Source: Chiloscyllium plagiosum (lineage: Eukaryota). From it: a DNA stretch of 64,000 nt. Below are positions 1 to 57,200 of this stretch, in pieces. Made by a program: the position numbers and the translations under genes. Under the pieces are notes generated by a model. The model saw only the letters and a program-made list of their open reading frames with translations. It was not told the origin of the DNA and searched no databases. Within the stretch, counting starts at the first letter, position 1; the number at the start of each line of letters is the position of its first letter. The stretch covers positions 11,319,122 to 11,383,121 of the forward strand of contig NC_057750.1 in assembly GCF_004010195.1 (NCBI RefSeq), in the 5' to 3' direction.

Positions 1-575
1 TATTGCATCCGCTGTACCCGATGTGGCCTCCTCTATATTGGGGAGACAGGCCGGCTACTTGCGGAGCGTTTCAGAGAACACCTCTGGGACACCCGGACCA
101 ACCAACCCAACCGCCCCGTGGCTCAACACTTCAACTCCCTCTCCCACTCCACCAAGGACATGCAGGTCCTTGGACTTCTCCATCGCCAGACCATAGCAAC
201 ACGACGGTTGGAGGAAGAGCGCCTCATCTTCCGCCTAGGAACCCTCCAACCACAAGGGATGAACTCAGATTTCTCCAGTTTCCTCATTTCCCCTCCCCCC
301 ACCTTGTCTCAGTCAAATCCCTCGAACTCAGCACCGCCTTCTTAACCTGCAATCTTCTTCCTGACCTCTCTGCGCCCACCCCCACTCCGGACTATCACCC
401 ACACCTTGACCTCCTTCCACCTATCGCATTTCCAGAGCCCCTCCTCCCTACCTTTTATCTTAGCCTGCTGGAAACACTTTCCTCATTCCTGAAGGGCTCA
501 TGCTCGAAACGTCGATTCTCCTGCTCCTTGGATGCTGCCTGACCTGCTACGCTTTTCCAGCAACACATTTTCAAC
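1..575 (+). mobile_element. Penelope-like element (Neptune-type) 3' fragment: GIY-YIG endonuclease C-terminus (frame 1, to 345) plus terminal region; truncated by window edge
   Basis: Frame 1 reads YCIRCTRCGLLYIGETGRLLAERFREH...HFNS..H...RRLEEERLIFRLGTLQPQGMN, the PLE GIY-YIG/CCHH signature. It is near-identical to 27873-28200 (minus). A degenerate hammerhead lies at about 485-518. Confidence 0.9.
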
Positions 576-1639
576 ACTCCTGAGAGCCCTACTATTAACT
601 GCGTAAGTCCTGCCCTGGTTTGCCTTACCAAAATGCAACACATCACATTTACCTAAATTAAACTCCATCTGCCGTTCCTCGGCCCATTGGTCTAGTTGAT
701 CAGGATTCCACTGTACTCTCAGATAAGCTTGTTCATGTCCAATAGGCCACCAAATTTGGGAAGTCTGTAATCTCAGCGGCTTTGAAAGAGTTAAACAATT
801 TATCCCATTCTTTCCATACAGTGCTGCATATGTTCATTTTTCTTGTATATTCCCCTTTGAGTTACAGTTGCATCCATTTTCAGGCAGCACACTCCAGATC
901 AGGACAACCTGTTACATAAACAAGTGAAAACTTCTGTTTCATTTGCCAATGGCTGTCAACAACTACTTCATTTATATAGCACCTTTAACATCATCACAGT
1001 GTCCTCTGATTAACAACCCACCTGCCAGTAGAATAGTTTCTCATTTTTCCTCCATCTAAATCCCCTCATTATTCTAAGCCCCTCGAGCTACTCTCCTCCT
1101 AACGTTCTGAGGTGAACAGTCCTGGGCTTCTTGAGATTTTTCACACTGCAGATATTCAGTACTCGTTAACAAATACAACTTGTTCTTTGCTGGATTTATA
1201 CCTCCTCCAGGATATAAACCACAAATGGGCTTGAAATGATCTCTCCATACAGACTCTCATTTTCATATTTCTTTAATTTCAAACATTCTGATGTGGGCAC
1301 AACTGGTACCATGAATGTATTAGTTAGGCAGCCATAAACTACATTGTATTTTACAGTGACACCAAACTGGCACCTTGGATAAATGTTTCAACACCAACAC
1401 TGTTAATTAAACAGCTCAACACCTTCTGGAGATTTTTGCAAACACCACTGATGAACAGGGGTGTGTTTGTAAGGAACAGTCAGTTCCATTTATTTGTTAA
1501 CAGATTGCCACTGATTTTGTTTGCTCTGAATTGATGTGACATTTACTGGTCCTCCTGTCAAGTTTTGCAGGGGTGTGCTGATTTCTTTGTGAAGAGGTTA
1601 AACTTTAAGCACGAAAGCTAACTTTTGAGAAAATAAATA

Positions 1640-2400
1640 CTATGCAGACCAAGGTGCCCTTGATATACAGGTCACAGAAAGATACCACACAGAGGTACAG
1701 CAAGCAATTCAGAAGGCAAGTGGTATATGCACCTTTATTACAAAGTAATTTCAGTAAAAGGGTAAAAAGGATTTACGACAATTGCATAAGACCACATCTG
1801 GAGTACTACATATAATTTTGGCCTCCATACCTAAGATGGTTTTGGAGAGAGTTCACCTGAGTAATTCCTGAATATTCTTATGAGGAGTGACAAAGTAGAT
1901 TGGGTCTATATTCTCTTAGGTTTGGAAGGCTGAGAAGTGATCTCAATAAACATATTAATTTTTTTAAAAAACATGATAGGATAGATGCTGGGAGAATGAT
2001 TCCTCTAGCTGGGGAGTCAGAATTTATGAGTTCGGGGTAAGCCATTTAGGATTAAGATGAAAGGAAATTTCTTACTAAAAGGGTTCTTAATCTTTCAAAT
2101 TCTCAACCATATCGTGGATTCTGAAGAAGGATCACTTGACCCGAAACATTAAGTCTGATTTCTCTCCCCAAAAGCTGCCAACCCTGCTGAATTTTTCCAG
2201 AAATTTCTATTTTTGTCATGGATTCTTAAATGTTAAATTTATTCAAATCTGACATTGACAGCTTTTTTGGCTACTGTGGGAATCAAGGTTTAATGCAGAT
2301 AGTGACGGAAGGTGGAATTGATGCAGATAATTAACCATTGAATGGTGGAGCAGGTTCAAAGAGTCGAAAGACCTGCTCCCGTGCGAATGCATTACGTTCT
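1640..2400 (+). mobile_element. Decayed CR1-type LINE 3' fragment, interrupted by a short PLE-end insertion
   Basis: Contains RPHLEY-like coding remnant (agaccacatctggagtac) and a CR1-like 3' UTR; many stops. Confidence 0.7.
2117..2215 (+). mobile_element. Short PLE-terminus insertion with hammerhead motif
   Basis: CTGAAGA (2121-2127), stem GGATCA/TGACCC, GAAA (2143-2146), CATT. Flanked by near-identical tc(g/a)tggattct at 2112-2122 and 2216-2226. Confidence 0.6.
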
Positions 2401-3212
2401 TATTCACTGAAGGTGTAATGTGCTGTATTTAGGTTACACCTTGAATATGCTATGTCCAGCTCCAGTCATCAAGGCACAGAAGAAGATCCAAACTGTGACA
2501 GTGCTGGACAGAAGGGCCACAAAGCTGATCTCTAATGTCAAAGAACAAGGAAAAATTTGAAAAATAAAGGTACTTCAGTCTAAAAGTAGGTGAAGCAGAG
2601 AGTTCCTAAGAGGGAATGCTAAAAATATATTTCGAAATAAAGCAAATTGAAGCAATTTTACAAGTTAAATCACAAGCCTGATGATAGCAAGACTGATAGC
2701 AAGGAAACATTTTGCCACTCAGAGTGATTGTACTCTTGGAAGAAGAGTGAGGGGAAACTCAGAAACTGCTGCTTAGATATTGTTTAGATACAATAATAGG
2801 CATTTTCGCAGGCAATAGGGTAAATGGGTACAGTGACTTCCCTCATCATTGAATATGGTCCCATTAGACACTCTACACCAGGAATCCTCCTGCCTGTGCT
2901 CCATGAAAGGTATTATCCACTTCCCCCTTTTTCATTAGCTGGAATTTACAATAGAAGAAGGTGCAATACTAATCCTGGAATTCCCTCCCTCAGGGCATTG
3001 TGGACCAACCTACAGCACATGGACTGGAGTGGTTCAAGAAGGCAGCTCACCACCCCCTAATCAAGGGCAACTAGGGACAGGCAATAAATGCTGGCAATAC
3101 GTGAAAAACTTTTTTTTAAAATTAGCTATGGTCTAAATGAACGGAAGAACAGTCTTGAGGGGTATACTCTTGTTCCAACTTTCAGAAGAAACATGTTCAT
3201 AAAGAGACTAGA

Positions 3213-3432
3213 GTCAAAAAGTGTGGTGCTGGAAAAGCACAGCAGGTCAGGTGACATCCAAGGATCAGGAGAATTGATGTTTTGGCCATAAGCCCTTCGT
3301 CACATTCCTGATGAAGGGCTTATGCGCAAAATATCGATTCTCTGGATCCTCGGATGCTGCCAGACCTGGTGTGCTTTTCCAGCACCACACTTTTCAACTC
3401 TGATCTCCACCATCTGCAGTCCTCACTTTCTC
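3213..3432. mobile_element. Palindromic PLE-terminus element (two inverted ends, each with a degenerate hammerhead)
   Basis: Inverted arms centred near 3302. The 15-bp TSD cataaaga(g/a)actaga lies at 3198-3212 and 3433-3447. Confidence 0.85.
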
Positions 3433-4039
3433 CATAAAGAAACTAGATCCAAGATCAGTCAAGTATGTGGGTCAGGAAATGATAATAAATGAATTAACAA
3501 AACAGCAGAACCCCCAACAGCCAATAAAGACACAAACTTAATCATGTCGTTAAACAAGGAAAACAAAAAGAATGTGCCAGGATGCTTGTCAGGAAGCTGC
3601 AATTATTCTCAAAACCATGAGGCGAAAGAGGAAGATCATTAAGGAGTCTGACTCCTGACTTCTCAATAATGTGGATAAATGTGTGAATGCCAGATGAAAA
3701 CTGAATTACGGCATTTGATGGTAGAATGCTCACTCTCTCACACAGACACACATTCACGGGAATGGTGATTGGGCAGCTTATTGATGCCTACCAGTTTCTG
3801 GGGAAACAATCCAGCTTCTATACACAATGCCTCCCATAGAAAATTGGAACAGCAAAGAGAGTCTGAAGAAGAGTACCAGGTCACCAAAAAGTTGCACTTT
3901 GTAAACTTTATCCTGCTCCGTACAAAAGACAAATCTGAGCCATGAATACTTCCAGATTTGTTACTCAAATTTCTCACTATTCTGGGACTTGTTTGGGGTA
4001 TGGGTAATGGGATAACATTTTTGTCCTAAAGCCCAAAGA

Positions 4040-5739: not shown

Positions 5740-5743
5740 GCTG

Positions 5744-5905: not shown

Positions 5906-6084
5906 AATGGGGTGATTGACGGCGCAAATAGCCTATCAGAAAGTCCATCAAGGCGGTTTCGTAACCACCCCAATTCTATTCAAAACGACCGGAGACGGTG
6001 GATCTGAACTTGCCAAGGACAGATTTCACAAACAGCAATGATATAATGCTCTGTTAAAAGGTCCTGGTGGAAGAGGGTTAGTTA

Positions 6085-6218
6085 GGTAAAAACAATGACT
6101 GCAGATGCTGGAAACCAGATTCTGGATTAGTGGTGCTGGAAGAGCACAGCAGTTCAGGCAGCATCCGAGGAGCAGTAAAATCGACGTTTCGGGCAAAAGC
6201 CCTTCATCAGGAATAAAG
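6085..6218 (-). mobile_element. Short PLE-terminus element carrying an intact-core hammerhead
   Basis: The reverse complement is nearly identical to 15118-15216 and extends into the PLE 3' tail. Confidence 0.8.
6178..6215 (-). ncRNA. Minimal type-I hammerhead ribozyme motif
   Basis: Minus strand reads ATTC-CTGATGA-A-GGGC-TTTT-GCCC-GAAA-CGTC-GATT. All core nucleotides are present, with a palindromic ACGU stem III; stem I is weak. Confidence 0.7.
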
Positions 6219-6928
6219 GAGTGTCTCTACCTTTGAGGGTTCGCGTCCCACCTGCCCGAGAGGTGTGTAATAATATACCTAGGCAGGTTAATTAAAATAT
6301 GTAAACAAAATAGCGATCCATTCATGGTATTATTCCTCCCCCTGCCTGAGGGCCATGAGACTGAGGTTCAAGGCCTGCTCCCAAAGTGTCAAAACTGCCT
6401 GAACAGGTTGGTTAGAAATATGACCTGTTCTGAGTTAATTAACCTAAAACTCTCAACTATGCTTCTCTCTTCGCAAATGCTGCAAGATCTGCTTCAGTAT
6501 TTCCTGCATTCACAGTATTTTACCCCAGAAACAATGATCAATTAATTCGAGGGAGACTCATATTGGACTCAAAACAGTAACTCTTTCTCTCCACGGGTGC
6601 AGCCAAACCTACTGATTTTATCCAGCACTTTCTTTTTTTTTATAATTGATCTTTGTAACTATTGTTTGAGGATAAATATTGGCCAGGACAACAGGAGAAC
6701 TCCCCTATTCCTAGCTCAGAAGCAGATCAATTAGTCAAATTAGCCTTTACTTGTTTCATATGCATGTCTCCTCCTATACCTTCAATTCCATTTTCAGTAG
6801 CATATGTTTCTACTCTCTTTTCTCTCATGTACTCATCTAGTCTCTTTTTGAAAGCATATTTGCCTTGAAACTTCCAATCAGCCTCTTTTGTCTGCTCCAG
6901 TCCTTCAAATGAACATCATTATCCACAA

Positions 6929-7640
6929 GGAGAAAGTGAGAACTGCAGATTTTGGAGATCAGAAAAGTAGATCAGGCAGCATCGCAGGAGCATCGATGTT
7001 TCGAGTATAAGCCCTTTATCGGGAATATGGTAGTGGAGAAGAGGGCTGAGAGATAGGAGGGTAGGGGTGAGGGTGAGGTAGCTGGGAAGGCGATAGGTAG
7101 ATGCAGGTGGGGGGTAATGGTGATAGGTCGGAGGGATCAGAGGGGAGGAATAGGTGGGAAGGAAGATGGACAGGCAGGACAGTTGGATCTGGGATGAGGT
7201 GGGGGGAGGGGAGATGAAGAAACTGGTGAAGCCATGTGATTGCAGGGTCCCAAGGCAGAAGATCAGGTGTTCTTCCTCCAGGCATCAGGAAGAATGTCTC
7301 ATCTTCCTCCTTGGGACTCTTCAACCACATTGCAGCAACGTCGACTTCACCAGTTTCCTCATCTCCCCTCTCCCACCTCATTCCAGGTCCAACCCTCCAA
7401 CTTGGCATCACCTCTTGAACAGCCCAACCTGTCCATCTTCCTTCCCACCTTTCCGCTCTACCCTCCCATCTAACCTATCACCCCCCCACCTGCATCTACA
7501 TATTACTTCGCCCCCACACCAGCCCTCGCACCCTCCTGTTTACTTCTCAACCCTCTCCCACCCACATCCATCCACTACATTCCTGACAAAGCCTTTGCCC
7601 AAAACATCGATTCTCCTGCTCCTTGAATGCTGCCTAATTT
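6929..7640. mobile_element. Older inverted (fold-back) PLE 3'-end pair
   Basis: The minus arm (about 6929-7290) and plus arm (about 7290-7640) both carry EE.LIF.LGTLQP remnants and degenerate hammerheads (about 6992-7026 minus, about 7579-7615 plus). Confidence 0.75.
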
Positions 7641-7644
7641 CTAA

Positions 7645-8252
7645 ATGTAGGTTTGCTCACTGAGCTGGAAGGTTTGTTTTCATCACCATATTAGGTAACA
7701 TCTTCAGTGAGCCTCCGGATTAAGCACTAGTGGTGTAGTCCGCTTTGGATTTATATGTTTGGGTTTCCTTGGGTTGATGATGTCATTTCCTATGGTGATG
7801 TCATTTCCTGTTATTTTTCTCATGGCATGGTAAATGGGATCCAAGTGAATGTGTTTGTTGATAGAGTTCTGATTGGAATGCCATGCTTCTAGGAATTCTC
7901 GTGCATGTCTCTGTTTGACTTGTCCTTGGATGGATGTGTTATCCCAGTTGAAATGGTGTCCTTTCTCATCTGTATGTAAGGATACTAGTGAGGGGGGGGG
8001 GGGTCATGTCTTTTTGTGGCTAATTAATGTTCATGTATCCTGGTGGCTAGTTTTCTGTCTGTTTGTTGACTGTAGTATTTGTTACAGTTCTTGAAAGATA
8101 TTTTGTAAGTGACATTAATTTTACTTGTCTGTATAGGGTCTTTCAAGTTCATTAGCTGCTGTTTTAGTGTGTTGGTGGGTTTGTGGGCTACCATGGTGCC
8201 AAGGATGATGACTTGAAAGACCCTATACAGACAACAAGTAAAATTAATGTCA
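7645..8252 (-). mobile_element. Second PLE family (Poseidon/Penelope-type) GIY-YIG remnant with short 5' inversion
   Basis: The minus strand translates to AHKPTNTLKQQLMNLKDP..NVTYKI...RKLATRIHEH...HHFNWDNTSI...HAREFLEAWHS. A hammerhead-like CTGAAGA-TGTTACC-loop-GGTGAT-GAAA is at 7678-7710, and 8110-8148 is inverted at 8211-8252. Confidence 0.75.
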
Positions 8253-9025: not shown

Positions 9026-9061
9026 CTTGTGAGCTAGACAGTTGACTGATGGTATAGCACA

Positions 9062-9255
9062 GCTGAAAATGTGTTGCTGGAAAAGCGCAGCAGGTCAGGC
9101 AGCATCCAAGGAACAGGAGAATCTACGTTTCGGGCATAAGCCTATGCCCGAAACATCGACTCTCCTGTTCCTTGGATGCTGCCTGACCTGCTGCGCTTTT
9201 CCAGCAACACATTTTCAGCTCTGATCTCCAGCATCTGCAGCCCTCACTTTCTCCT
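9062..9255. mobile_element. Near-perfect palindromic PLE-terminus element
   Basis: About 78-bp inverted arms around a 4-nt loop (gggcata-agcc-tatgccc, 9132-9149). The 15-bp TSD tga(t/g)ggtatagcaca lies at 9047-9061 and 9256-9270. Confidence 0.9.
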
Positions 9256-10776
9256 TGAGGGTATAGCACAACCAGGCAGCAATAGTTGATCTCCATAAAT
9301 GGGTTATGCAACCAAATTTGTAGCTCATACATCACACCAACATTTAATAGTTTCTCAAATTTATAAAATACTCACTCATATCACTTTGACCACCTGCTGA
9401 AGAAGCGCCGCTCCAACAGCTAGTGATTCCAAAAACCTGTTGGACTATAATCTGGTGTTGTGTGATTTTTAACAATGTAAACACTCTTCCAACTCACCAT
9501 TCAGGCAACCCTTGCCAGTTAATTAATTTAATCTAGATGAAGGTTAAAAATCACCCATGATTTTCAACATAACTTATTCATAAACACCAATTATCTGATA
9601 TGGTTTCCCCTGTCCAACAGTATGGTTGCAGTTAGGGTACTCATAAAAGTGACTTCTTACCTTCTCAATCTCTATCCAGGTCTACACCCTAACATCCAAC
9701 ACTAGGATCATTTCTCTTGTATTGTATTGGCACTATTAATAGAGCAGTTGTTCGCTCCATCTTTACCAAGCTTCCTGCACTTTCTAAATATCACATACTT
9801 ATGAAATTGCAGGTCCTAGATTTTGGTATTTTGCGACCATGTCTCGGTAATGACTACTTATTTCTATTTATGATGCAAAATCATGTTTTGTTACCAATTC
9901 TTTTTTTTTACTGTTTTCTAATCTTTGGTTCTACCTATTGTTACACTCTTACATTAGTACACTTTATCCCTTCCTATCATGTTCTGATACAATTTGCTTC
10001 ATTGCTACCGTGCTCTTTTACCTTATCTCCTGTATTAACTGATAGAATCTTTCACAACTTGATCCCTTTCCCCCTAATATGTAAAGTCCTCTCTTCTGAC
10101 CTAGTTATGGCGCGCCAGAGCACAGGTCCCAGGAAGTTCTGCTGAAGACCGTTCCATCAATATAGCTACCATTTTCCCAGTAGTGGTGACCCAGGAATCA
10201 AAAGCCATTTCTCTCACGTCAATTTTTGAATCACACATTTAATTTTATTTACAGAATGTCAGTTTCCTTCTGGCCAGCATAAATACAATGGACCAAAGAG
10301 CCTGTTTCTGTGCTGTAAAAACCCTATGGCGCGAATGTTAAAAAGAAAAACACGCGTTTGAAATGCTATAGGATACAATGTGGTCCAGTGGTAGTGTCCT
10401 TTCTCCAAAACAGAAGGCATTGGTTCAAGTACCACCTGTTCGAGACATGTGTAATAGCACGTTTGAATAGTTTGATTAAAATTGTCTAAAATACAAAGAT
10501 TAAAGCAGCTTTTGATTATGCCTTAACTGCGCTAAGCCTGATCTCGGATTGATCATTGCTGAGTATTCAAAGTGGAAAAATATTCCTACTCACATCATTG
10601 AGCACACAAGTGCTGCCAAATCCTACTGGTAAATGATATCCCCAGTTCTGTATTTTGGAATGGAATATCCACGATTACGTTTGCTTGGTACCAATTATTA
10701 TTTTATAAACTTGCCCGAAAAATATAACCTTTCTCTCACCTAGAAAATGAATACTACTTAATATATCTAAAATACT

Positions 10777-10835
10777 CCGAAAGCTAGTGCTTCCAATTAA
10801 ACCTGTTGGACTATTACCTGATGTGTGATTTTTAA
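10777..10835 (+). mobile_element. Tiny PLE-terminus insertion (third family; 3' half of a hammerhead)
   Basis: ccgaaagctagtg...aaacctgttggactat is shared with 9390-9470, 38572-38731 and 48480-48562. The 10-bp TSD ctaaaatact lies at 10767-10776 and 10836-10845. Confidence 0.7.
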
Positions 10836-10973
10836 CTAAAATACTACTGGTCAATTGCTTGAGAACGGGGTTGGAATAATGAGGTGAATGGTGCGGTAAT
10901 GCTCTGTGCTGTGAAACCTCCGTGACTCTAATCTTCAAAAAGGGGAGAAAAAGAAAACGCAGACAGAAAACCA

Positions 10974-11342
10974 TTAGGTATTGGCCTGCTTTAATTTAGG
11001 TGAACACTGCAAATCATCTCCCTGCAGCTTTTGGATCATCCGCTCCAGAAGGCAGCGGTTGGGTCCCTTGAACTGAAAGATCTTGGCTCCGGTCCTGTAG
11101 AACTGGAAGGTGGGGAACCACTCAATGCGGCAAAGCTGCACCACGTCCTTGGCTACGTTGATGTCAACCTCGTAGAAGGCCACCTCCGGATAGGACTCGG
11201 CGAACTCATCGAAGTAGAGCTGGATCATCTGGCAGAACTCGCACCAGTGCGCGGAAAAGAGCATGACGACCAAGCGCTGCTCACTCTCCCGCAAAGCCGC
11301 CTCGAACTCCACCACACACTTGACGGTGTTGACCTCGCCCAT
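10974..11342 (-). CDS. Intronless thioredoxin-like protein B (122 aa from ATG 11342; 132 aa from 11372), active site WCEFC
   Basis: FSAHWCEFCQMI, FYEVDI, WFPTFQFY (cis-Pro) and FKGPN give a thioredoxin fold with a short C-terminal extension. The ATG at 11342 has a strong Kozak (gcgATGG). Intact and CpG-rich. Confidence 0.88.
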   Translation of the reverse strand: MGEVNTVKCVVEFEAALRESEQRLVVMLFSAHWCEFCQMIQLYFDEFAESYPEVAFYEVDINVAKDVVQLCRIEWFPTFQFYRTGAKIFQFKGPNRCLLERMIQKLQGDDLQCSPKLKQANT

Positions 11343-11359
11343 CGCTCCGCCTACTGAGC

Positions 11360-12600
11360 CGGCCCCGCCCATTCAAGACCCTGGGGCCGGCACTTCCACC
11401 CGCAGCCTCGTGACGTCATGGTACGTGACACAGAGACCGCCGACGCCATTGGCCAACACCGTTCAACACCGCCCCGCCAATCACCATCAGCCTCTCCCGT
11501 AACTTAGCAACGTCGGTTAAAAATACATTTCAAAAATGGCGTTCTCACTGTTGATAATTCACGTTCTACCGTCGGTTACTCACAGTCGACCAATGATTCG
11601 CTCCTAAGTCAGAACTCGGTAGTTTGAAACTCTCATCTCAACCCGAAATCGTTTGATTTGTTGGGGTTTTCAAACCAAGTTTCTTGGTCCCCGCCCACAG
11701 CGGAGACGCGATGGCGATTGGGCGAGCGGGCAGTCCGTTGGCGAGACCCGCCTCCGTCGCGATGATGGACGGCATTATTTACCAATCGTAACCGCAGTAG
11801 AACCGACCCCTTTCTCCCGATTGGCCTGTGCCTTCCGACGCCTGGCCAATAGGACAGGCTCCAGGGGGCCTGTAGCTCGAGCTAGTGTCTTGATTTGCAC
11901 CGAGCGCGGCGGCCGGGAGGAGGAGTGCAGACGAGAAAAACAACATGAAGAATTAACTCGGCGGGGAACGGACGGGTTATGGCGGACGGGGGTCGATGAG
12001 GAGGGAAAGCCGTGTCTACCTACTGTGATGATCGGGATATAATTAAAACAAATAATTGCGTCCAAGTAAATCAGCAGGTAGCGACCCGCTCCCAGCGAGA
12101 GTGTGTTTTTTTTTAATTTGATTGCTGTGGTGCTCAGGGCGCCCGTTACACGGCGGCTTCGAAGTGCCCGTTGGTTTTTTTTCCATCATCCAGGCCAGGA
12201 ATTCGCGCTGAAGGAGCCGGTTTCCCAGAAAGTGCCTCTCTGGAAAGGATTGATTCCGGGGGGGTGGGGGGGTACAGTCCTCTTGCCCCACCAAGCCCAT
12301 CTTGTGGGTGGGGGAAGAGGGGGGAGGGGCGGGGGCAAGTTCTCGACAGCTCTAACTGCGCATGGGCGCCGAGCTGGCCGGGACTTGTAGTTCTGGTACT
12401 ATTTCTCCTTTAGAGAGCGAGACTGTGTTGTCTTTTTTTTTTGTAGGAAGGTAGTTGGAGGGTGAAGCATCCCAGTAGAGATTTTAGATAGGCCGACTGG
12501 CCCTGACCCGGTGTTGGTTCCCGTACCGCAGGATTGCAAGGATATCTATCACTCGGTGAACTACAAGGCCCAGCATGCACCGGGTGCAGCCAAGCGCGAA
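11360..12600. promoter_or_regulatory. Bidirectional CpG-island promoter (thioredoxin-like B on minus; SERTAD3-like on plus)
   Basis: GC box 11363-11370, perfect CRE TGACGTCA 11411-11418, several CCAAT boxes on both strands, RFX X-box-like GTAACTTAGCAAC 11499-11511, YY1-like AAAATGGCG 11533-11541, ZNF143-type ACTACAAGTCCC 12380-12391 (minus). CpG-dense. Confidence 0.75.
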
Positions 12601-13380: not shown

Positions 13381-13429
13381 AATGCCTTGTGTTTTTGAAA
13401 AGTCCTTTATTAATGCAACCCCTTCTATT

Positions 13430-13540
13430 TCCTAATGAAGGGCTTATTCTCCTGCTCCTTGGATGCTGCCAGACCTGCTCTGCTTTTCCAGCACCACACT
13501 CTCTACTCTGATCTCCAGCGTCTGCAGTCCTCACTTTCTC
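13430..13540 (+). mobile_element. Short PLE-terminus insertion (hammerhead partly deleted)
   Basis: cctaatgaagggctta...catc/gtctgcagtcctcactttctcc; flanking ctatttcc repeat at 13425 and 13541. Confidence 0.7.
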
Positions 13541-15117: not shown

Positions 15118-15216
15118 GCTTTATTCCTGATGAAGGGCTTTTGCCCGAAACGTCGATTTTGCCTGTCCTTGGATGCTGCCTGAATTGCTGTGCTCTTCCA
15201 GCACCACTAATCCAGA
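15118..15216 (+). mobile_element. 99-bp PLE-terminus insertion with intact-core hammerhead
   Basis: Perfect 15-bp TSD atatgttgtctgaag at 15103-15117 and 15217-15231. Confidence 0.9.
15123..15158 (+). ncRNA. Minimal type-I hammerhead ribozyme motif (predicted cleavage after GUC at 15154)
   Basis: CTGATGA 15127-15133, stem II GGGC/GCCC 15135-15146, GAAA 15147-15150, CGTC 15151-15154. Confidence 0.7.
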
Positions 15217-15839
15217 ATATGTTGTCTGAAGTTTAGAAGAATGAGGTGTAATTTTGTTGAAACAGAAAATTCTGAAGGGGCTTACCTTTGAATTTTCTTT
15301 TTAATAATGGTGTGCAGTTTCAAGGTAATCATTCAGGACTGAGGAGAAATTTATGAATCTATGTAATTCTATGCCCACACAGCCAAATGCACCAACATTG
15401 AATAAATTTAAGGCTCATTGGATAAATTTAGAACTGTGTGGATTTTTTTCACTTCAGAATTGAGAAATGTGGTTGGGAAAGATGGTATTGAGGCAAAAGA
15501 TTAGTCATGGAATATTGAATGATACAGCAGGCCCAAAAAAACCACCTACCTATTACTCTTGCTTCTTATTGTCTTAAGCCACATAAAAATAGACCAGGAA
15601 TCTTGTTTCTTTCCCTAAAATGCGGAACCAGGTTGGATGTTACAGTAATACATAAACTTATAAGATCCTTTTATTGGCACCAATTTTGTATTTCCAGACT
15701 TGTTTTGCTTTTGGAAGCTCAGTTCAGATCCTCGGTCTACTGTGATGGGATTTGAACCCTTATATATTGGGATTGCCCACTCATGGTCATTTCAGTGATT
15801 GATGACTGAGTCTGATTTGGAGAGTTCTGGGCCACTAAC

Positions 15840-37835: not shown

Positions 37836-38446
37836 TACCATGGGATACTGGTGGGACACTGGCTATGGTAAAGGCTGTGGGTGTTGTGCTTCAGAACTAG
37901 CTGCATCCCTAGCCAAGCTATTCCAATGCACATATAACATTGGCATGTATCCAAACATGTGAAAAACTCTCTAGGTATGTCCTGACCACAAAAAAAACAA
38001 GACCAATCCAACTCAGCCAATTACTGCCCAGTCAGTTTACTTTCAATCATCAGTAAAGCATTCAAAGAGGCCTTGACAGTGCAATCAAATGGCACTTGCT
38101 CACTGATGCCCAATTTGGTTCTGCCAGGGTGACTAAGTTCCTGACCCAATTGAAGCCGTGCTTGGTCCAAAACAAACAAAAGGGCTGAACTTGAGAGATG
38201 AGGTGAGGGTGAGTGCCCTTGATATCAAGCTGGGATTTGACCAAATGGAGCCTCAAGGAATCATAACAAAACGGTAGTCAAGAGAAATTAGGAGGAAATC
38301 TCTTCACTGGCTAGAGTTATGCTGTGGACAAAAGAAAATGGGTGTAGTGTTTGAGGTCACTCAACCCAGGACATTGCTGCAGGCATTCCTAATGATAGTG
38401 TTCTGGATCCATTCATCTTCAGTTGTTCAAAAATGTGGAAAATTGT

Positions 38447-38930
38447 CAGCACAGTGCTCAGTGGTGAGTTCGATTCCAGCCTCTGGTAACTGTCTATGTG
38501 GAGTTTGCACATATTCCCCAGGTCTGCATGGGTTTCCTTCAGGTGCTCTGGTTTCCTCCCATAGTCCAAAGGGGCCATGATATGGTTACAGTCCAGTAGG
38601 TTTATTTAAAATCACAAGCTTTCAGAGTGCTGCTCCTTCGTCACTTCACCTGATGAAGGAGTAGAACTCCAAAAACTTGTGATTTTAAATAAACCTGTTG
38701 GACTATAACTGGTGTTGTGAGACTTCTGACTTAGCCCAAAGATGTGCAGGTTAGCTGATTGGCCTTGCTAAAATTGTCCTAGTTTCCAGGGATGTGCATG
38801 CTAGGTAGATTGTCCATGGGAAATGCAGGTTTACAGGGATAGGGTGATGGGGTCTGGGTGGGATGCTCTTCAAAGGGTCAGTGTGGACTCGATGGGTCAA
38901 ATGGCCTACTTTCCCACTGCAGGGATTCTA
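38447..38930 (+). mobile_element. HE1-type V-SINE interrupted by a palindromic PLE end
   Basis: A/B boxes, V-domain and tail as at 18396. Confidence 0.8.
38572..38731. mobile_element. Palindromic PLE-terminus element (third family), two degenerate hammerheads
   Basis: CAC-CTGATGA-AGGAGT-AGA-ACTCC-AAAA-ACTT-GTG on plus, with an inverted copy. TSD tag(t/c)ccaaag at 38562-38571 and 38732-38741. Confidence 0.75.
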
Positions 38931-42732: not shown

Positions 42733-44778
42733 TCACCCCCTCCGAATGAGTAGCGCTCCACTCTCTCCACACCAACCCCTAGTTCACCATCAAACCTGGT
42801 GACAAAGGCAGGGTAGTAACCTGGATAACGAACCTCCTTTATCGCAGAGCCCGAATGTCAACTTTCTGACACCACATCCTAAGTCCCCCTTGCCCATGAT
42901 CCCACCATGACCCATCATTGCTAAAATTCCTCACACTGTCTGTGACCTTATTGCCTCCAGTAATCTCCCCTCCACGGCCTCCAATCTCATAGTGCCCCAG
43001 ACCCGCACTGCCCGGTTCTATCTGCGCCCCAAGATTCACAAGCCCAACTACTCCAGCTGATCCATCATTTCGGCATGCTCCTGCCCCACCGAACTCACCT
43101 CGTCCTATCTCGCCTCCATCCTCTCCCCCTTGGTTCAGGCACTTCCCACCCACATCTGTAATACCAACCACAACCTCCACCTCTTCAGTAACTTCCAGTT
43201 CTCCGCTCCCCACCCCCCCAGTGCTTTAGCTTCACTATGGATGTGCAGTCCTTTTACACATTAATACCCAACAAAAATGGCCTCCAGGCCCTCAGCTTCT
43301 TCCTCTCCAACAGACCCATCCAGTCCCGCTCCACCAATGCCCTCGTCTGCCTTGCTGAATTGGTCCTCACCCTTAATAACTTTTCCTTTAACTCCCCCCA
43401 TTTCCTCCAAATTCAGGGGGTGACCATGGGCACTGAGATGGGTGCCACCTATGCTGGCCTCTTTGTGGATTAAGTCAGACAGTCCCTCTTCAGTACCTAC
43501 ACAGGCACTGTGCCTCAACTCTTCCGCCATTACATTGATGACTGCATCGGTGCAGCGTCCTGTACCCAGGTTGAACTTGAGCATTTCATCAACTTCGCCC
43601 ACCCTCAAATTCACTTGCTCCATCTCGGACACCTCCCTCCCCTTTCTTGATCTTTCCATTTCCATCTCTGGCGACAGTCACCAGATGGACATTTACTACA
43701 AACCCAAAGACTCTCATAACTACCTGGCCTACATCTCCTCCCACTCAGTATCCTGAAAGAACTCCATCCCGTTCTCCCAATTTCTCTGCCTCCGTCACAT
43801 CTGCTCAGACGAGGAGACATTCTACACCCAAGCATCCCAAATGTCCACCTATTTCAAACAATGTGCCTTTCCCACCTCTGTCATCCACACAGCACTCCAC
43901 TGCGCCACCTCCAGCCCCTGTTCCACCTGCTCTAAACCCCCCACAATACAATAAAGACAGAGTCCCTCTTGTCATTACCTAACACCCCATCAGCCTCTGT
44001 ATCCAACGCATAATCCTTAAACACTTCTGTCAACTCTAACAAGACCCCACCATCAAGAATATCTTTGCCTCCCCACCCCAATCTGCCTTCCTCAAGGACT
44101 GTTCCCTTTCCCCACCGACACCCCCAATCTGGTATACCATCCACCTCACCTCCATCCAGGGCCCCGAACAGTTCTTCCAGGTGAGACAGAGGTTCACATG
44201 CCTCTCTTCCAACCTAATTTACTGCAGCAGGTGCCCCTGATGTGGTCTTCTCAACATCGAGGAGATGAAATGTAAACTGAGGGAACGGTTCGCCGAGCAT
44301 CTCAGCCTGGCCTGCAGGGGCCGACCGAACCTCCCAGTCACCACCCATTTTAATTCCCCTTCCCACTCCCTTTCCAACATGACCATCCTAGGTCTCCTCC
44401 GTTGCCACAATGAACCAAACCGCAAATTGGAGGAACAACACCTCCTCTTGCGTCTGGGCAGCCTACAGCCCGGAAGACTCAACATTGAATTCTCCAATTT
44501 CAAATAACCTCCCTTCCCTTCCCCCAGCTCCCTTCCCAGCCCCCTCCTCCTACCTTCCTCTCCTCTCAGCCACCTACGAGATTCATTCCTCCCAATGACC
44601 AACCAGGTTGTACCCTCTACCTGTCTTCACCTATCCCCACCCTGCCCACCCCCTTTATCTGCAGCTCCCCTTACACCACCCCCAGTCCTGAAGAAGGGTT
44701 ACATCTGAAACATCGACTTCGACACCTCCTGATGCTGCCTGGCCTGCTGTGTTCTTCCAGCCTCCTGCTTGTCTACCT
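42733..44778 (+). mobile_element. Neptune-type PLE (RT plus GIY-YIG, disabled) nested in the CR1
   Basis: RTARFYL.PKIHKP, FTMDVQSFYT.IP, NNFSFN...GVTMGT, FRHYIDD, LPFLDLSI, IYC..CP.CGL..I.E, RERFAEH and EEQHL..RLGSLQP..LN. Terminal hammerhead. Confidence 0.9.
44684..44718 (+). ncRNA. Minimal type-I hammerhead ribozyme motif with paired stem I
   Basis: AGTC-CTGAAGA-A-GGGT-TAC-ATCT-GAAA-CATC-GACT. Stem I AGTC/GACT is fully complementary; stem II carries G-U wobbles consistent with C>T decay. Confidence 0.65.
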
Positions 44779-47700
44779 TGGCAACAAACCAGGCCAGATG
44801 TCTGATATCTCAGTGGGAGAGCATTTTGGTGACAGTGATCACAACTCCCTGACCTTTACTATAGTCATGGAAAGGGATAGGAGTAGATGGTATGGGACAA
44901 TATTTAATTGGGGAAGGGAGAGTTACAATGTTATTAGGCAGGAACTGGGGTGCCTAGATTGGGAACAGATGTTCTCAGGGAAATGCATGACTGAAATGTG
45001 GAGGTTGTTTAGGGATCACTTGCTGATAGTGCTGGATAGGTTTGTCCCACTGAGGCAAGGAAGGGATGGTATGGTGAAAGAACCTTGGGTGACAAGGGAT
45101 GTGGAACATCCAGTCAAGAGGAAGAAGGAAGCTTACTTAAAGTTGAGGAGACAATGATCTGACAGGGCTCTAGTGTGTTACAAGGCAGCCAGGAAGGAAT
45201 TGAAGAATGAACTTAGGAGTGCTAGAAAGGGGCATGAGAAAGCTTTAATGGGTAGGGTTAAGGAAAACCCTAAGGCATTCTAAACTTATGCGAAGACCAA
45301 GAGGATGGCCAGAGTGAGGGTAGGGCTGATCACAGTTAGTGGAGGAAACTTGTGCCTGGAGTCAGAGGAGGTAGGGGAGGTCCTTATTTAATGATTTGCT
45401 TCAGTATTTGATGTTTGTGAGGACAGTGTGAAACAGGCTTATATGACCGAACAGGTTGCTATTAAGAAGGAGGATGTGCTGACAATTTTGAAAAATGTAA
45501 GGATGAATATCCCTAGGCCAGATGGGGTACACCCTAGGTTACTACAGGAAGTAAGGGAAGAGATTGCTGGGCCTTTGACAATGATCTTTGCATTCTCACT
45601 GTCCACTGTAGTGGTGCCAGATGACTGAGGGTGGCAAATGTTATTCCCTTGTTCAAGAAAGGGAACAGGGATTATCCTGGGAATTATAGACCAGTCAGTA
45701 TGACGTCTATGATGGGCAAATTATTGGAGAGGATTCTGAGAGACCGGATTTATGATTACTTCAAAAAGCATAGCTTGATTAGAGATAGCCCGCATGACTT
45801 TCTAAGGGACAATCATGCTTCACAAACTTTATTGAATTCTTTGAGGATGTGACAAACACATTGATGAAGGTAGAGCAGTAGATGTGGTGTACATGGATTT
45901 TAGCAAGGGGTTTGATAAGGTTTCCCATGGTAGGCTCATTCAGAAAGTAAGGAGGCATGGGATACAGGGAAATTTGGCTGTGTGGATACAAAATTGGCTG
46001 GCGCATAGTAGGCAAAGGGTGGTGGTAGATGGAAAGTATTCAGCCTGGAGCTCAGTGACCAGTGGTGTTCTGCAGGGATCGGTTCTTTGTGACTTTTATA
46101 AATATCTTGGATGAGGAAGCGGAAGGGTGGGTTAGTAAGTTTGCCAATGACACAAAGGTTGGTGGAGAAGTGGATAGTGTGGAGGGCTGTTGTAGGTTGC
46201 AACGGGACATTGACAGGATGCAGAACATCAGTCCCCACTTACTCCAGGATGCAGAACTGGGCTGATAAGTGGCAGATGGAGTTCAACCTGGAAAAAGTGT
46301 GAAGTGATTCATTTTGGAAGGTCGAATTTGAATACTCAATACAGGGTTAAAGGCAGGATTTTTGGCAGTGCGGAGGAACAGAAAGATCTTGGGGTCCATG
46401 TCCATAGATCCCTCAAAGTTGCCACCCAAGTTGATAAAGTTGTTAAGAAGACATATGGTGTGTTGGCTTTCATTAGCGGGGGATCGAGTTAAGAGATGCA
46501 AGGTTATGCCACAGCTCTGTAGAGCCCTGGTTAGACCACACTTGGAATATTGTGTTCAATTCTGGTCACCTCATTATAGCAAAGATGTGGAAGCTTTAGA
46601 GAGGGTACAGAGGAGATTTACCAGGATACTGCCTGGACTGGAGGACATATCCTATGAAGAAAGGTTGAGGGAGCTAAGGCTTTTCTCATTTGAATGAAGA
46701 TGGATGAGAAGTGACTTGATAGAGGTGTACAAGATGATGAGAGGCATAGAGTGAATAGTCAGAATTTTATTCCCAGAACAGACATGGCTATCACAAGGGG
46801 GCATAATTTTAAGGTGATTGTGGGAAGGTTTAGGGGAGATGTCAGAAGTCCGTTCTTTCCACAGAGAGTGGTGGGTGCCTGGAATGCACTGCCAGCGGTG
46901 GTAGTGGTAGTAGTCAGATACATTAGGGACATTTAAGCGACTCTTGGATAGACACATGGATGATAAGAAAATGAAAGGTGTGTGGGTTAGTTTGACCTTG
47001 GAGTAGGATAAAGGGTCGGCACAACATGGAAGGCCGAAGGGCCTGTACTGTTCTATGTTCCGATTTTCAGCATTCCTATTATTTTTATTCCCTGGTCCTC
47101 TTGGATCAAGCGGAGGCCATTCAGCCCAAAGAACCTGTTCTGCCATTAAGATCGTGGCGGTTTCACATTCTATTCACCTACCTGTAATCCATGCCCTTTG
47201 ATACCCTCAACCCACAAAGATCTCTGTGTCTCAAACATGAACACTCGCTGCTGGGATGATTATTTGTTAATTATCCTCTTCTTTCATCGTGATGTGGATG
47301 AGTCAGCCATGACTCGCGTGTAGGCTGCTCGCTCAGCCCCCACTGGTCCGTAGTCTCCTCCAGTTCGAAATTTACATCTTTTCCGTTAACTCCTTGAGTT
47401 CCGCCTTGCTTCCTATAGCCCTCTAATTCCGATATGTTTTGAAATGTGTTCCTATTTGAGGCAGTGAGGGCCGCTTTTATTTCTCATCAGGTAGAGAGTG
47501 CCCCGAAGGCACAGATTCTGGAGTCACGACAGGGGAAAGGACCCTGAAAGCTTTCAAAACAAAATATGCCAAAATGCTAGATTTTATGAATTCACAAGCA
47601 GTTTGTGTGGGATTTGAATCTTTGACACCTCCAGGTTAATTGCTGGGAATGAACATGCTGGAGAGCAGGCTCTGATTGTAGCTAGCTGCCAGGTTACCGA

Positions 47701-47863: not shown

Positions 47864-50800
47864 TGTGTGGGTTGGCTTTACTCTATATCATGTGATAGGG
47901 TATGGAGGGGGGGACTCTCAGCTGCTTGTTTGATAGGAACCAGTCGGCACTGATCCAGCAGCTTGGGGTATCCCTGGCAGGTATGTAAAGATTTATAAGT
48001 TCTCGACACGTTTAAGGAGAAGTTAGATAAATAGGTTGAAAGGAATATTGGATTGAATACTGGCAGGATTGGAGGGCGCTCAAACCCTAGTATGGATCAG
48101 TTGGACCGAATGGCCTGTTTCTCTGCTCTTTATAGTGGTGAGCTGAGCATTCTGAAGCATTCAAGGGAAGCGGGAAGGCGGAATTTTGAGTCAAGAAATT
48201 CCCGGTTGGTGTCTTCACCAGATCTCTAAAAGACTGACTGTTACTTCTGAGCTGTCGCTGTATTTGGGATTGTGACCAAGACCGTAGAGATGTTCCTTCT
48301 CTCGCTGTATATCTATCTATCCGTGTCTGTCACTGACGATTCGGGGTTTCCATGTCCCAAGCTGTTCCAGGGAGCGGGAGATTTTGTTTTAATTCTGCTC
48401 CAGATTTTATTTGCAACTTGCTTTGAAAGCCCCGCCTCTAGAGCCAGTCATGATTTGGAGGTACCGGTGTTGGAGTGGGGTGGACAAAGTTTGAAAATCT
48501 TACAACACCAGCTTATGGTCCAACAGGTTTTATTTGGAAGCACTAGCTGCTCCTTCATCAGGGTGGGATCAGTCAAGTCGAGATATCACTGTGGTTTGGG
48601 AGGGTTTGAAAGTCCGATTTCGGTATTAGGAGCTGGACATGTCTGTAGACCCCCATCTGTGTGGTTATAGGCGAAGGTTTTTATCTGGGGAGGAAGGGAA
48701 GGTCCCTCTAACCTCCTTCCAACCTCAGGGCTCTACTCACTTGACTATTTTAGACAAATTGTACAGTTGTCCTTTTTTGGTCCATTCCTGTTGTCTCTGG
48801 AGACCTCCAGTTTGTTGACTGCCTTTCTCCCTGTTCCGTGGAACGATTGTCGCCGTTGTATTTCAGACTTCCTTTACTGATTAATATTGTTCCCGCTAGT
48901 TGCAAGTGCCTTTCACGGCGAGGGGTGTCGCTCTGAATGAGACACGCCCCCCTGAGTCTGTGACTGAAACCGGGATCTGAAATCTCGGGTGAGGAATCCA
49001 AGTGATTTGTGGCTGGAGGAACTGTTGGAGATGTAAAGACCATTATATAATCCACCCGCTGTTGGTCTCCCACTAGAACTGAACATCTTTGTACAGGAGG
49101 CAAAGTTTCCCTTTATTTCTCACCACTCCAGTGAAGTGTATGTCGTTTAAATGTAGAAACAGTGGACAGCCAGTATGTATGCAGTAGGCCCCTAAAACAG
49201 CATCGAGATAAGGCACAGAATATTTTGTTATTTGTGATATTGATCAAGGGAGAAACGTTGGCTCAGATTATCGGCCAGACCTCTCTCCTTTTGAAATTGG
49301 ATCGTTTTACGTCCACCAGAGAGAAATGTCTTGGTTCAATACAACGTGTCATGAGAGTCTGCGCTTCCGACAGAACTGCACTCGCTCAGTATTGGTCAAG
49401 GCTATTGCTGTTGAACTCTGGGCTGGGGCTTGAACCCACAACTTTCTGAAGCGAAAGTGCATTGAGGCACAGCTGGCGTCCATGAGAGTGGTTTTAACCT
49501 CTCATGTAGGTACCTTGTTCAGAGTCAACACAGTAAAGGCAAGGAATTTGAATTATATTCTGTAAGGAAGTGTTGTCAATGAGAGAGGTTGTCATAGACT
49601 GCTTATTCTGTAGTTAGTGAGGTGTTCACAGGGTAAATAATAACGCACTTCTTTACTACACAGAGGAACACTTTTTCAAGATGAAAGAAATACATCCAGT
49701 CTTCAGTGATGCAGTGTAGAAGGCTGCGAACATGGGTGGATGAGTTGACCTAAGGGTCTGTTTCCGTGCAGTTTCACTTTATGACTTGTTCTTCACTGTG
49801 TGAGACTGACCAGAGAGAACCTGATGATACATGAGCAGTGATCTATCTGATGTGGTGCCATAGCAAACACTCTAAGTGGCCACAATTTGTAACTTTATTT
49901 TTAATTCATACCAATGGGATGTGGCTGGGCCAACAGTTATTGCCCATCTCTAATTGTCCTAAAGAAGGTGGTGGCAAGTTACCTCCATGAACTGTTGCAG
50001 TTCTTCAGTGTAATGGCACCTACAGTGATATGAGGTTGGGAGAGTCACTTCAAGCGGTTCTTATAGTTTGCTGGAGTGTGCAGAGGAAAGAGGAAGCACG
50101 TTAGTCATAGGAATGCTGGGAATACAAAGTTCAGACGGCAGCAATGAGTTAAACACAAACTTGCAAGCATGACTGGTTACAATGTCTTCTGTTGCAATTC
50201 TATCTTATCCATGAGTTCCTCCAGTAACATTGTCTCCCACAATCTATTAAAGCTCAATCCTGGTGTCCTTAACTGTAACATGGAATCATAGGAAAAGTAG
50301 TTTCTCATTTCTATTGAGCTTTGCACAAAGTGTTTTACAGTCACTGAAGTGCTTTTAGAGTCTGGTCACAGTCATAATGTGGGAGACACACCAGTCACTT
50401 TGTACACAGCAAGCTCCCACAAATAGTGCTGACAATGAGCAGAGAATCTGTTTATTTTCTGAGATAAAATAATAGAAATAGAAGTAAGCCATTCAGCTCC
50501 TGAATCCGATTCATCAAGCAACATGATTATGGCTGATGGTCAGTCTCACCGCCGTACTTTTGCTTTCTCTCTGTGACACTTCTCTAGAAATCTATCTTTC
50601 TGAAACATTTTCAGTGACTTTGCATCCATAGCCATTTGTAGTAAAGAATTCTACTAGTTCAACAGTCTGAATGAAGAAATTTCTTACCTTGTGGCTTACC
50701 TCATATCCTGAGATCATTCCTCCTCAAGCTAGACTCCAAGCCACAGAAAATCATCTCTGATGTTGTTTAAGGGATATATACATGCTGAGAAATTGAATAA

Positions 50801-54841: not shown

Positions 54842-55176
54842 GGTGGCATGGTTGCTCAGTGGTTAGCACTGCTGCCTCACAGTGCCAGGGACCTGGTTTG
54901 ATACCACCCTTGAGTAACTGTTGGTGTGGAGTTTGCACGTTCTCCCCGTATCTGCGCATGATTCCTCCAGATGCTCTGGTTTCCTCCCATGGTCAAAAGA
55001 TGTGCAGGTTAGGTGAACTGGCCCTGCTAATTTGCCCTTGGTGTCCAGGATGTGCAGGCCAGGTGGGTTACCCATGGGTAAGGGGGCTAGTCTGGGTGGG
55101 ATGCTGTCTGGACGGTTGGTGTTGACTCAGTGGGCCAAATGGCCTGCTTCCACAAAGTAGGGATTCTATGATTCTA
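54842..55176 (+). mobile_element. HE1-type V-SINE nested in a minus-strand CR1 remnant (about 54435-55700)
   Basis: gctcagtggttagcactgctgcctcacag head, V-domain, ctatgattcta tail. Confidence 0.85.
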
Positions 55177-56599
55177 ATCCATTCATTCTGGGTGTGAGTC
55201 TCGTGAACTTCATCTGAATCACTTCCAATAAATTTACACCCTTCTTTAAATAAGATAATTAAAACTGCACACCCTATTCACAATGTGGTCTCAGCAATTC
55301 CCTGTGTAACTGAAGCATAACATTCTTTCATTTTATATTCAGATCATTATGTAATAAAGAGATTGTTTTCCACCAGCCTTTTGCATGCTGTATCTGCAGA
55401 GTGACGTTTTCATGAATCAGAACATCTAGATCACGTTATACCTCCAAACTCTGCAGTCATTCTCTACTTATTCTGCTTTTTCATTCTTCCTGCTCAACTT
55501 CAAATTTTCCCACATTGTACTCCTCTCTCACTCACTCAACTTAAGTCCTTCTGCAAATACTTTATTATTGCTTCTTAATAATAATTTGCTATCTCAAAAT
55601 TTTATCTCCCATGCCTTCACTCTCCTCTAATTCATTGATGTAAATAGTAATCTTTGAGGCCTCAGCTCCAACCTCCTGTGGGAATCTACTTGTCTCACCC
55701 TGCCAAACAGACAGACACATTTATTTATGAATATGCTGTTTTCTGCCAACTAGAAATAACCCTGCACCATAATTTTTCTTTTTCCAACAATAACTGGAGC
55801 AGGCATGCAACACTTGAATAGCTAATCAACTGGCAGCACCATTTTAGCCAGCCAAGCCTCATGGAGCAAGAGAGAGCAGGGCAACAGCAAAAAGTTTATG
55901 TAGGTCCATGAATAGTGCAGACCAAAGCCACTCATGGCAGCTTAAAAGATGGGAAATTGTATTGGAGTGAGCCACGGAGAGATCAGGAGTGTATTTCAAT
56001 AATGATATGCTGATGGATCTGCGATATTTGGGTGAACATCCATTGTAAATAATTAATTCCTCTAAGTTATACTTTTCCATTATCTATAAATATTGCCATG
56101 GAATTTTAAAAATCGCTCTTTTATAATCTTTGTACACTGTTTTTGTTAATTGTCTATTACACACGGATGGTCAGAAACAGTGTAGGTCAACAAGCATGGG
56201 GCTGACTGGATTTGGTGGAACGTAGTACATAGCATGGATCTTCAAAAGCTGAATTTCATGGACCGGCAGGTGGGGGTTCACTGGCCATAGGTACATCGAA
56301 CAGTTGAGTTTGAAAGTAGGAATGGTGTGAATGAGAGTTTCAGCAGTTAATAACTGGTGATATGACCGAGGTGGAAGAAGGTAGTCCTCCTGGTGGAGAG
56401 GATAAGGAGTCAAGAGCTCACCTCTGTCTCAAATAGGGTGCTGTGGGTACATACATTTGGTTCAGTTTCAATAGCCAGGAGGAGAGATCGGATCATTAAT
56501 AAGGGAATGGATTTAGTTCAGTGACAAAACAATGGTTCAGTTTATCCAGTTGTTAATTAGAGTAAATCTCTGCACTTACATTACTGGCTGATCTTCACT

Positions 56600-57200
56600 T
56601 TGAGTTGAGAATGTGGTGTTGGAAAAGCACAGCAGGTCAGGCAGCATCCGAGGAGCAGGAAAATCCCTGTTTCGGGCAAAAAACCCTTCTTCAGGAATGT
56701 TTAATTTGAGGTTAGTTCTGGCACTTTGACTGAGCTACCACAACACAAATTGGGGTCAACCTCCTGGACTGAATGGCAGGATTGCAGTGGGTCACCAGGA
56801 GGAATAAATGCAGTATTCATGATGAAAGTCTAGAATCTTCAATCTCTCACCCTTCATTAATTGGTTGGATCTGACCTTTCACTTCCTCGCTTCCCTTTCA
56901 CCAGAGCCCCTCAAAACCCCAAACAGGTGAAATGTGATATACTATATTTCCTGTTCACAACACAACCACCTCTACACTGGAGATACCAAAAGTGGACTGT
57001 GTGACCAGTTTACAGAGTGTCTCATTCAGTCTGCAAGTATTACCCTGAGAGTTTGATTGTTTGCCACTCTGATTCTTCTGTCCTCCACCTTTCAAATTGA
57101 TCTAGTGAAGCTCAGTGCAAACTTGAAGCTTCATCACATCATCTTTCAACTGGGCACTTTATACCCTTCAGGACTCAGCATGGAGTTTGATAACTTGAGA
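56600..57200. mobile_element. PLE remnants: minus-strand terminus (56600-56700) and old plus-strand GIY-YIG fragment (about 56920-57200)
   Basis: gtttcgggcaaaaaacccttcttcaggaat; HHIIFQLGTLYPSGLSMEF. Confidence 0.6.

Follow-up and report, generated by a model that had tools for sequence, protein, structure and literature searches.

We analyzed a 64,000-nucleotide stretch of the Chiloscyllium plagiosum genome (contig NC_057750.1, positions 11,319,122 to 11,383,121; hereafter, the window), which contains two SERTA-domain genes, a thioredoxin open reading frame (ORF), and 28 relics bearing hammerhead ribozyme motifs. These motifs are minimal hammerheads of the pseudo-long terminal repeats (pLTRs) of Neptune- and Poseidon-type Penelope-like elements (PLEs), and the 5′ ends of their copies probably trace the start of an uncut RNA template. 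The relics were identified by searching family profiles against the window and a 1.2-Mb genomic sample; the same sample, reversed, served as the control and yielded 0 relics. Fifteen of the window relics belong to family 1, 1 to family 1b, 4 to family 2a, 2 to family 2b, 5 to family 3, and 1 to family 4. Throughout, positions within a copy are counted from the hammerhead core base C3 (position 0), a scale on which the predicted family-1 cut falls between +27 and +28. The relics and their carriers are listed below.

482–578, + strand: family-1 relic with a 3-nt core deletion.
2113–2222, + strand: family-2a relic with stems I and III decayed.
3198–3447: two decayed family-1 copies in fold-back arrangement, meeting at the ribozyme 5′ edge and accompanied by a target duplication.
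6179–6214, − strand: intact family-1 minimal hammerhead inside a short copy (6083–6218) that terminates in a 36-nt tail.
6423–6640, + strand: two old family-2a relics (6423–6519 and 6562–6640).
6961–7639: two family-1 PLE 3′ ends arranged as a fold-back; their hammerheads, near 7030 (− strand) and 7576 (+ strand), are decayed.
7636–7762, − strand: family-4 (Poseidon-type) pLTR fragment with a TATA box at 7750–7755 and a hammerhead broken by a 9-nt deletion.
9047–9270: fold-back pair of family-1 copies, with the joint within stem II.
9387–9491, + strand: decayed family-3 relic.
10773–10847, + strand: family-3 copy truncated within stem II, with a target duplication on both sides.
13426–13518, + strand: family-1 relic with a deletion from loop II to stem I.
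15123–15158, + strand: intact family-1 minimal hammerhead (stem I from 15123, C3 at 15127, predicted cut after 15154), heading a 100-bp insertion (15119–15218) with target duplication 15101–15117/15215–15231.
27714–29810: single Neptune-type PLE insertion with a 5′-truncated ORF on the − strand and target duplication 27714–27730/29794–29810.
28668–29150 and 27873–28667, − strand: ORF parts of this insertion, namely the end of the reverse transcriptase (RT) and the Zn-finger linker with the GIY-YIG endonuclease, respectively.
C3 at 27857, − strand: 3′ pLTR hammerhead of this insertion, G8 mutated, tail present.
29757–29792, + strand: inverted-arm hammerhead of this insertion, core intact, stem III mutated.
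29725–29761, + strand: predicted transcription start of putative function, with a T-rich motif at the TATA position (29725–29731) and an initiator-like motif whose A, at 29757, is the first base of stem I.
35153–35245, − strand: family-2b relic, C3 lost.
37534–37846: fold-back pair of family-1 copies, G12 mutated in both.
38567–38744: two decayed family-3 copies forming a fold-back, with the joint at the ribozyme 5′ edge.
40091–40199, + strand: family-2a relic, A13 mutated.
40594–40691, + strand: family-2b relic, C3 lost.
44677–44787, + strand: family-1b relic with a mutated stem III, 3′ of what remains of a Neptune-type endonuclease.
48468–48562, − strand: family-3 relic in which an internal deletion takes half of stem II and the GAAA.
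56599–56700, − strand: family-1 short copy that starts at the ribozyme edge, stem III mutated.

All motifs reported in an initial annotation of the window are present, and the pair at 9056–9231 and the relic at 6423 are additional. The dense hammerhead population described there holds as far as the 28 relics go, but only 2 motifs are fully intact by a strict descriptor (C3 at 15127 on the + strand and at 6210 on the − strand), on opposite strands and 9 kb apart, and the remaining 26 are damaged in the core, stem III, or stem I. In the descriptor search proposed in that annotation, 20 shuffles of the window gave a mean of 0.1 strict motifs, yet one shuffle also reached 2, whereas allowing one core mismatch yielded 8 motifs against a shuffle mean of 0.7 and a maximum of 3. 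The proposed Rfam search returned no hammerhead match in the window up to E = 10, as would be expected for motifs without stem III. The former family 2 comprises two families, 2a and 2b. Nor is the window exceptional in density, since its 28 relics in 64 kb (437 per Mb) compare with 418 in 1.17 Mb (357 per Mb) of an unbiased sample of the 3.56-Gb assembly, consisting of 120 ten-kb stretches from contigs C1–C40 counted without N, with unplaced contigs lying outside the sample.

The family-4 site had been read as a hammerhead at 7678–7710 (− strand). This copy has lost the GAAA, stem III, and the cut site to a 9-nt deletion, and the layout described for it was therefore a mis-parse; the copy is a separate Poseidon-type fragment adjoining the family-1 fold-back, and the two do not form one element. 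We considered a ribozyme-less family-4 subfamily and rejected it: the deletion occurred in 8 of 20 query-biased best matches (one a duplicate) and in 0 of 12 unbiased copies, and its carriers were scattered on a weakly supported tree without grouping as a subfamily, so that repeated slippage events between two GAAA words are the likelier cause. Several genomic family-1 copies share another alteration, an 18-nt tandem duplication beginning at the predicted cut site, which is either a subfamily trait or recurrent slippage.

The carriers were characterized from the window insertion and related loci. The GIY-YIG domain of the window ORF scored E = 3.5e-4, slightly short of the Pfam gathering cut-off, and RVT_1 was detected in related loci at E = 8e-9 (L090) and 9e-8 (L297); the RT piece of the window insertion gave 65,132 first-look candidates genome-wide. 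An endonuclease end precedes the motif in 56 contexts of family 1, 13 of family 1b, and 11 of family 2a, with the linker present wherever it was covered, as a CX4CxxC word in the window ORF (27873–28667) and in family-2a contexts; families 4 and 5 have the endonuclease upstream, without a Zn-finger-like linker. Families 1, 1b, and 2a are accordingly assigned to the Neptune type and families 4 and 5 to the Poseidon type, by presence of the linker motif rather than by a tree. Family 3 has a single weak endonuclease link (9/18 identical), and no ORF link was found for family 2b in the contexts examined. The young, Poseidon-type family 5, whose minimal hammerhead is intact and which has a TATA box, occurs in the sample (L297, L235, L245) and is absent from the window.

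The motif follows the endonuclease stop by approximately 150 nt. Where copies stand in tandem, the ORF starts approximately 40 nt past the tail, and hence the family-1 ribozyme lies approximately 170 nt 5′ of the ORF, in the 5′ untranslated region (UTR). In subfamilies with U at core position 7 (window 15127–15133), an AUG in the catalytic core opens an upstream ORF of approximately 17 codons in the predicted 5′ UTR; subfamilies with A at this position have no such AUG. Young copies show two fixed 3′ end points 36 nt apart, which constitute the PLE tail (30 genomic copies). An inverted arm is present in 101 of 177 family-1 copies, the tail of head-to-head insertions often being present on one arm only, and copies carry 8–17-bp target duplications, long ones that in Neptune-type insertions lie in non-microsatellite DNA.

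The genomic load of the motifs is very large, as the initial annotation anticipated. The exact family-1 pattern had 61,112 matches in the genome against 0 for the reversed pattern, and the strict descriptor found 57 intact motifs in the sample (about 49 per Mb) against 0 in the reversed control; extrapolation from these and from the 418 sampled relics gives approximately 170,000 intact copies of the motif and 1.3 million relics. The core CUGANGA/GAAA/UH, the extra base after A9, and the G10.1–C11.1 pair were found in the commonest natural motif for 8 of 9 family patterns; the family-1b pattern returned zero genomic matches. The type-I layout with a palindromic minimal stem III had likewise been described correctly: ACGU or AGCU occurs in 7 of 8 motifs, with ACAU in the decayed family-2b example. 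Between families, pair 1.1–2.1 is C-G, U-A, or A-U; pair 1.2–2.2 is U-A, C-G, or A-U; the second stem-II pair is G-C, A-U, or U-A; and pair 15.2–16.2 is C-G or G-C. These compensatory changes were judged by comparing family motifs, without statistical scoring, and stem I of family 1 has a U·U mismatch in two of three young subfamilies. Paired, compensating changes in the stems around an unvarying core make it likely that selection acts in the source elements.

The claimed covariation over a constant core thus stands between families; it does not extend to the copies themselves, in which the core decays like its neighbors. Among copies spanning the region (86/203 for family 1, 41/82 for family 3, and 27/83 for family 2a), decay at non-CpG core positions compared with control columns was 28/848 versus 79/2206 in family 1 (p = 0.74), 21/408 versus 78/1095 in family 3 (p = 0.20), and 32/265 versus 106/687 in family 2a (p = 0.22). 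G12, which lies in a CpG, was lost in 12/84, 13/41, and 11/26 copies of families 1, 3, and 2a, respectively. The genomic copies are neutrally decaying insertions, with the core unprotected at the population level; core conservation above that of neighboring repeat sequence, the sign of host domestication, was not found at this level, and single exapted copies may exist. A partner of the same family and strand lies within 1 kb for only 4 of the 57 intact motifs in the sample, and no head-to-tail ribozyme arrays were found in the 64-kb window, to which that search was confined. In predicted folds, the intact window motif as a monomer has its core paired into a hairpin, and the active dimer lies 5–14 kcal/mol above the co-fold minimum in 8 of 8 motifs, these energies reflecting secondary structure only, without tertiary terms. 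The ribozymes are of a known kind, and the "catalytic load" consists mostly of inert relics; motif counts overstate catalytic RNA, since the copies decay neutrally.

The 5′ ends of the copies bear on which RNA was copied. Of 203 family-1 copies, 177 could be scored, and 93 of these start at −12 to +9, compared with 14 within 3 nt of the cut and 37 further upstream. Starts at −12 to +9 account for 37/76 copies of family 3, 7/14 of family 1b, 27/76 of family 2a, and 1/22 of families 4 and 5 combined; a further 28 family-2a copies start at +10 to +26, ends that are unreliable because this family is old. Per nucleotide, the 5′-end rate is 0.057 in the pile, 0.0032 upstream of it, and 0.013 at the cut. 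The pile lies 25–35 nt upstream of the predicted cut, and since 5′ ends upstream of the cut require templates spanning the scissile bond, the copied RNA was uncut. Most copies detected by sequence lying 3′ of the cut also continue to its 5′ side. Cleavage-defined 5′ ends were sought and set aside: there is no dominant peak at the scissile bond, where a small local excess (0.013 versus 0.008 per nt) may exist. The pile persists among inverted joints (63/101) and among copies with a target duplication of at least 10 bp (9/10), and is thus not an artefact of missing reference sequence.

Among intact copies genome-wide, 7,198 have their start precisely at −4, the adjoining upstream letter not matching the element, compared with 1,815 at +1, and starts at the cut preceded by a purine gave 1,078 pattern matches; the patterns are unequal in breadth, and point mutants are included. 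Hand tallies of the first 100 matches listed per start position gave G 58, A 27, and T 15 before −4 and G 16, A 49, and T 35 before +1, an excess of G at −4 over the position five bases further in with p = 9e-10. Three DNA runs from three organisms gave their best support for loose ends to −4 and −3, with G as the majority letter next to −4 on the element strand. At full-length L1 junctions, an extra 5′ G marks capped templates (PMC11702581).

In families 1, 1b, and 2a, an initiator-like word places its A on the −4 base. Upstream, TATAAA or CATAAA occurs at −33 to −35 in families 2a and 2b, at −38/−40 in family 3, at −48 in family 4, and at −53 in family 5, and a T-rich word occupies −34/−36 in families 1 and 1b, its spacing to the initiator being kept in 112 of 293 family-1 contexts. 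Family-4 ends at −18 (3/31, two being the arms of one insertion) and a family-5 end at −23 (1/22) each fall 30 nt past the TATA box. A rotifer element with TATA and initiator is known, and PLE promoters have been located in pLTRs (PMC3846280; PMC2377424).

We consider it probable that, alongside their neutral decay, approximately half of the Neptune-type insertions are run-off complementary DNAs (cDNAs) of an uncut, likely capped mRNA that begins with the opening base of stem I. An upstream pLTR promoter would start the capped mRNA at this base; the reverse transcriptase would then start in the 5′-proximal tail of its own mRNA, by the internal initiation shown for an anole element, and run off the capped 5′ end after approximately 95–135 nt. 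That the run-off products measure only 95–135 bp would follow from synthesis starting inside the mRNA. Extension of one or both target strands would leave solo or head-to-head copies without a promoter, and the short products would be promoter-less, dead-on-arrival units of ribozyme and tail. The ribozyme would be selected only in source elements and would cut only with help, from a dimer and/or an element protein.

Several observations weigh against placing a capped start at −4. The pile is 20 nt wide, and only 12 of 177 family-1 copies start exactly there. At non-inverted independent loci, G precedes in 9 of 19, a modest excess (p = 0.046), and in 7 of these 9 it is shared with the target, which points to microhomology and not plainly to an untemplated base. 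Ten of the 30 loci read are inverted joints, with the G unexplained by the arm in 4 and ambiguous in 5, and the share of G varies by subfamily (47/71 versus 11/29). Family 3 peaks at −4 (9/105) and not at the TATA-predicted −8 (3/105); family 1 lacks a canonical TATA; and the initiator and TATA consensus motifs, taken from general knowledge, are short. In one raw single-cell RNA run, both strands showed read-through with no peak at a start site, the intact motifs being transcribed within host RNAs. Finally, D. virilis Penelope has a TATA-less internal promoter and an intron upstream of the ribozyme (PMC2377424, PMC4209133).

The strongest competitor to run-off from a capped start, although we think it unlikely, is that the pile reflects reverse transcriptase stalling or template switching where the 3′ pLTR ribozyme is folded and bound by protein. 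The breadth of the pile and its overlap with the ribozyme fit such a block, as do the frequent inverted arm and the protein assistance reported for the anole ribozyme (PMC11167929), but stalling would be expected at the 3′ edge of the fold (+28 to +32), where the rate is only 0.013 per nt, and predicts neither the G excess specific to −4 nor the ends of families 4 and 5 at TATA spacing, few as these cases are. There is still less to recommend a SINE-like (short interspersed element) origin, with the short copies being a non-autonomous family descended from few short masters that by chance started at the ribozyme edge: very high copy number, uniform 95–135-bp size, target duplications, and the existence of non-autonomous PLE derivatives (bioRxiv 10.64898/2026.07.22.740005) would suit it, yet families 1b, 2a, and 3 and at least 3 subfamilies of family 1 share the boundary, each agreeing in sequence with its long parent, starts differ from one base to the next, the promoter-like motifs upstream are missing from the short copies, and the window has no tandem arrays. 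That a very large set of working ribozymes cuts host or element RNAs as dimers and is maintained by selection, as the initial annotation implied, is highly improbable despite the density of intact motifs, their transcription within host RNAs, and the between-family covariation, because core decay equals that of control columns, 26 of 28 window relics are broken, same-strand partners are few, the monomer and dimer folds are unfavorable, templates were uncut, and in vitro activity is low even for dimers (PMC4209133).

Run-off from a capped start admits an extension that we put forward as doubtful: the shark Neptune hammerhead would be the first 36 nt of the capped mRNA, overlapping the initiator, and a protein-assisted cut would remove a capped 32-nt leader, a self-decapping switch ending translation or freeing the RNA for circularization. 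Circularization of the released unit has been proposed (PMC4209133). The hundreds of thousands of mini-copies would then be cDNAs of the uncut capped form, and would therefore record the transcription start at single-base resolution.

Minimal hammerheads in metazoan PLE pLTRs, their mass occurrence, and opposite-strand pairs were described by Cervera and De la Peña 2014 (PMC4209133), and the motifs reported here agree in being type I with an extra base after A9, G10.1–C11.1, a palindromic 15.2–16.2, and a 3–4-bp stem I, as well as in forming several covarying families per genome, mostly as solo copies and opposite-strand pairs. They differ in number, with 61,112 family-1 motifs against approximately 4,000 in coelacanth and 9,000 in Xenopus, counting methods differing between the studies; stem II here is 4–6 bp, and the available text of that work names no sharks and maps neither 5′ boundaries nor promoters. 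The anole Poseidon element (Frangieh et al. 2024, PMC11167929) uses mainly uncut RNA as its in vitro substrate, and its tail is tied to two internal reverse-transcription start sites; the two 3′ end points forming a tail, the uncut template, and a ribozyme close to where the ORF region begins are shared with the shark copies, most of which are, unlike that element, of the Neptune type, and the ORF begins inside the ribozyme in the anole but approximately 170 nt downstream in family 1.

The carriers resemble the Neptune and Penelope/Poseidon clades of Craig et al. 2021 (PMC8557442) in 5′ truncation, inverted 5′ arm, 30–40-bp tail, and C-terminal GIY-YIG, and the linker feature of those clades (CX2–5CxxC) is present in families 1, 1b, and 2a and absent in families 4 and 5. 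Non-LTR (long terminal repeat) retrozymes, including one chondrichthyan case (bioRxiv 10.64898/2026.07.22.740005), likewise carry type-I hammerheads from PLE pLTRs but form head-to-tail arrays, whereas the window copies are solo or head-to-head. The 5′-junction G read as an mRNA cap trace is shared with full-length L1 (PMC11702581), from which the shark copies differ in their run-off products of 95–135 bp and in junctions often showing microhomology. What is added here is a junction record of an uncut, probably capped template; a literature search, in which most subscription papers were beyond reach, found none placing a PLE start on hammerhead stem I or describing the junction G.

The other features of the window include the two SERTA-domain (SERTAD-like) ORFs, each a single exon and in tandem orientation (21911–22885 and 57715–58530, both + strand). 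The thioredoxin-domain ORF (10974–11372, − strand; 132 aa, Pfam E = 3e-17) is intronless, lies directly downstream of a GC-rich promoter-like stretch, and has the active-site word WCEFC, the usual thioredoxin motif being WCGPC; judged from sequence, it is a candidate retrogene or thioredoxin-like gene. A weak tRNA-like match (60424–60507, + strand; Rfam 23 bits, below gathering) is possibly the head of a tRNA-derived SINE.

The function of the PLE ribozyme has been called unclear (PMC8557442), and the genomic copies provide an in vivo read-out on its role: the uncut templates agree with the anole in vitro result and argue against cutting being needed for making these insertions. If the mRNA indeed starts on stem I, the ribozyme would lie directly under the cap, and its role as a decapping switch would become open to a direct test. 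Such a start would also explain the numerous solo minimal hammerheads in fish-like genomes, and would offer a general route to mapping PLE promoters from DNA alone.

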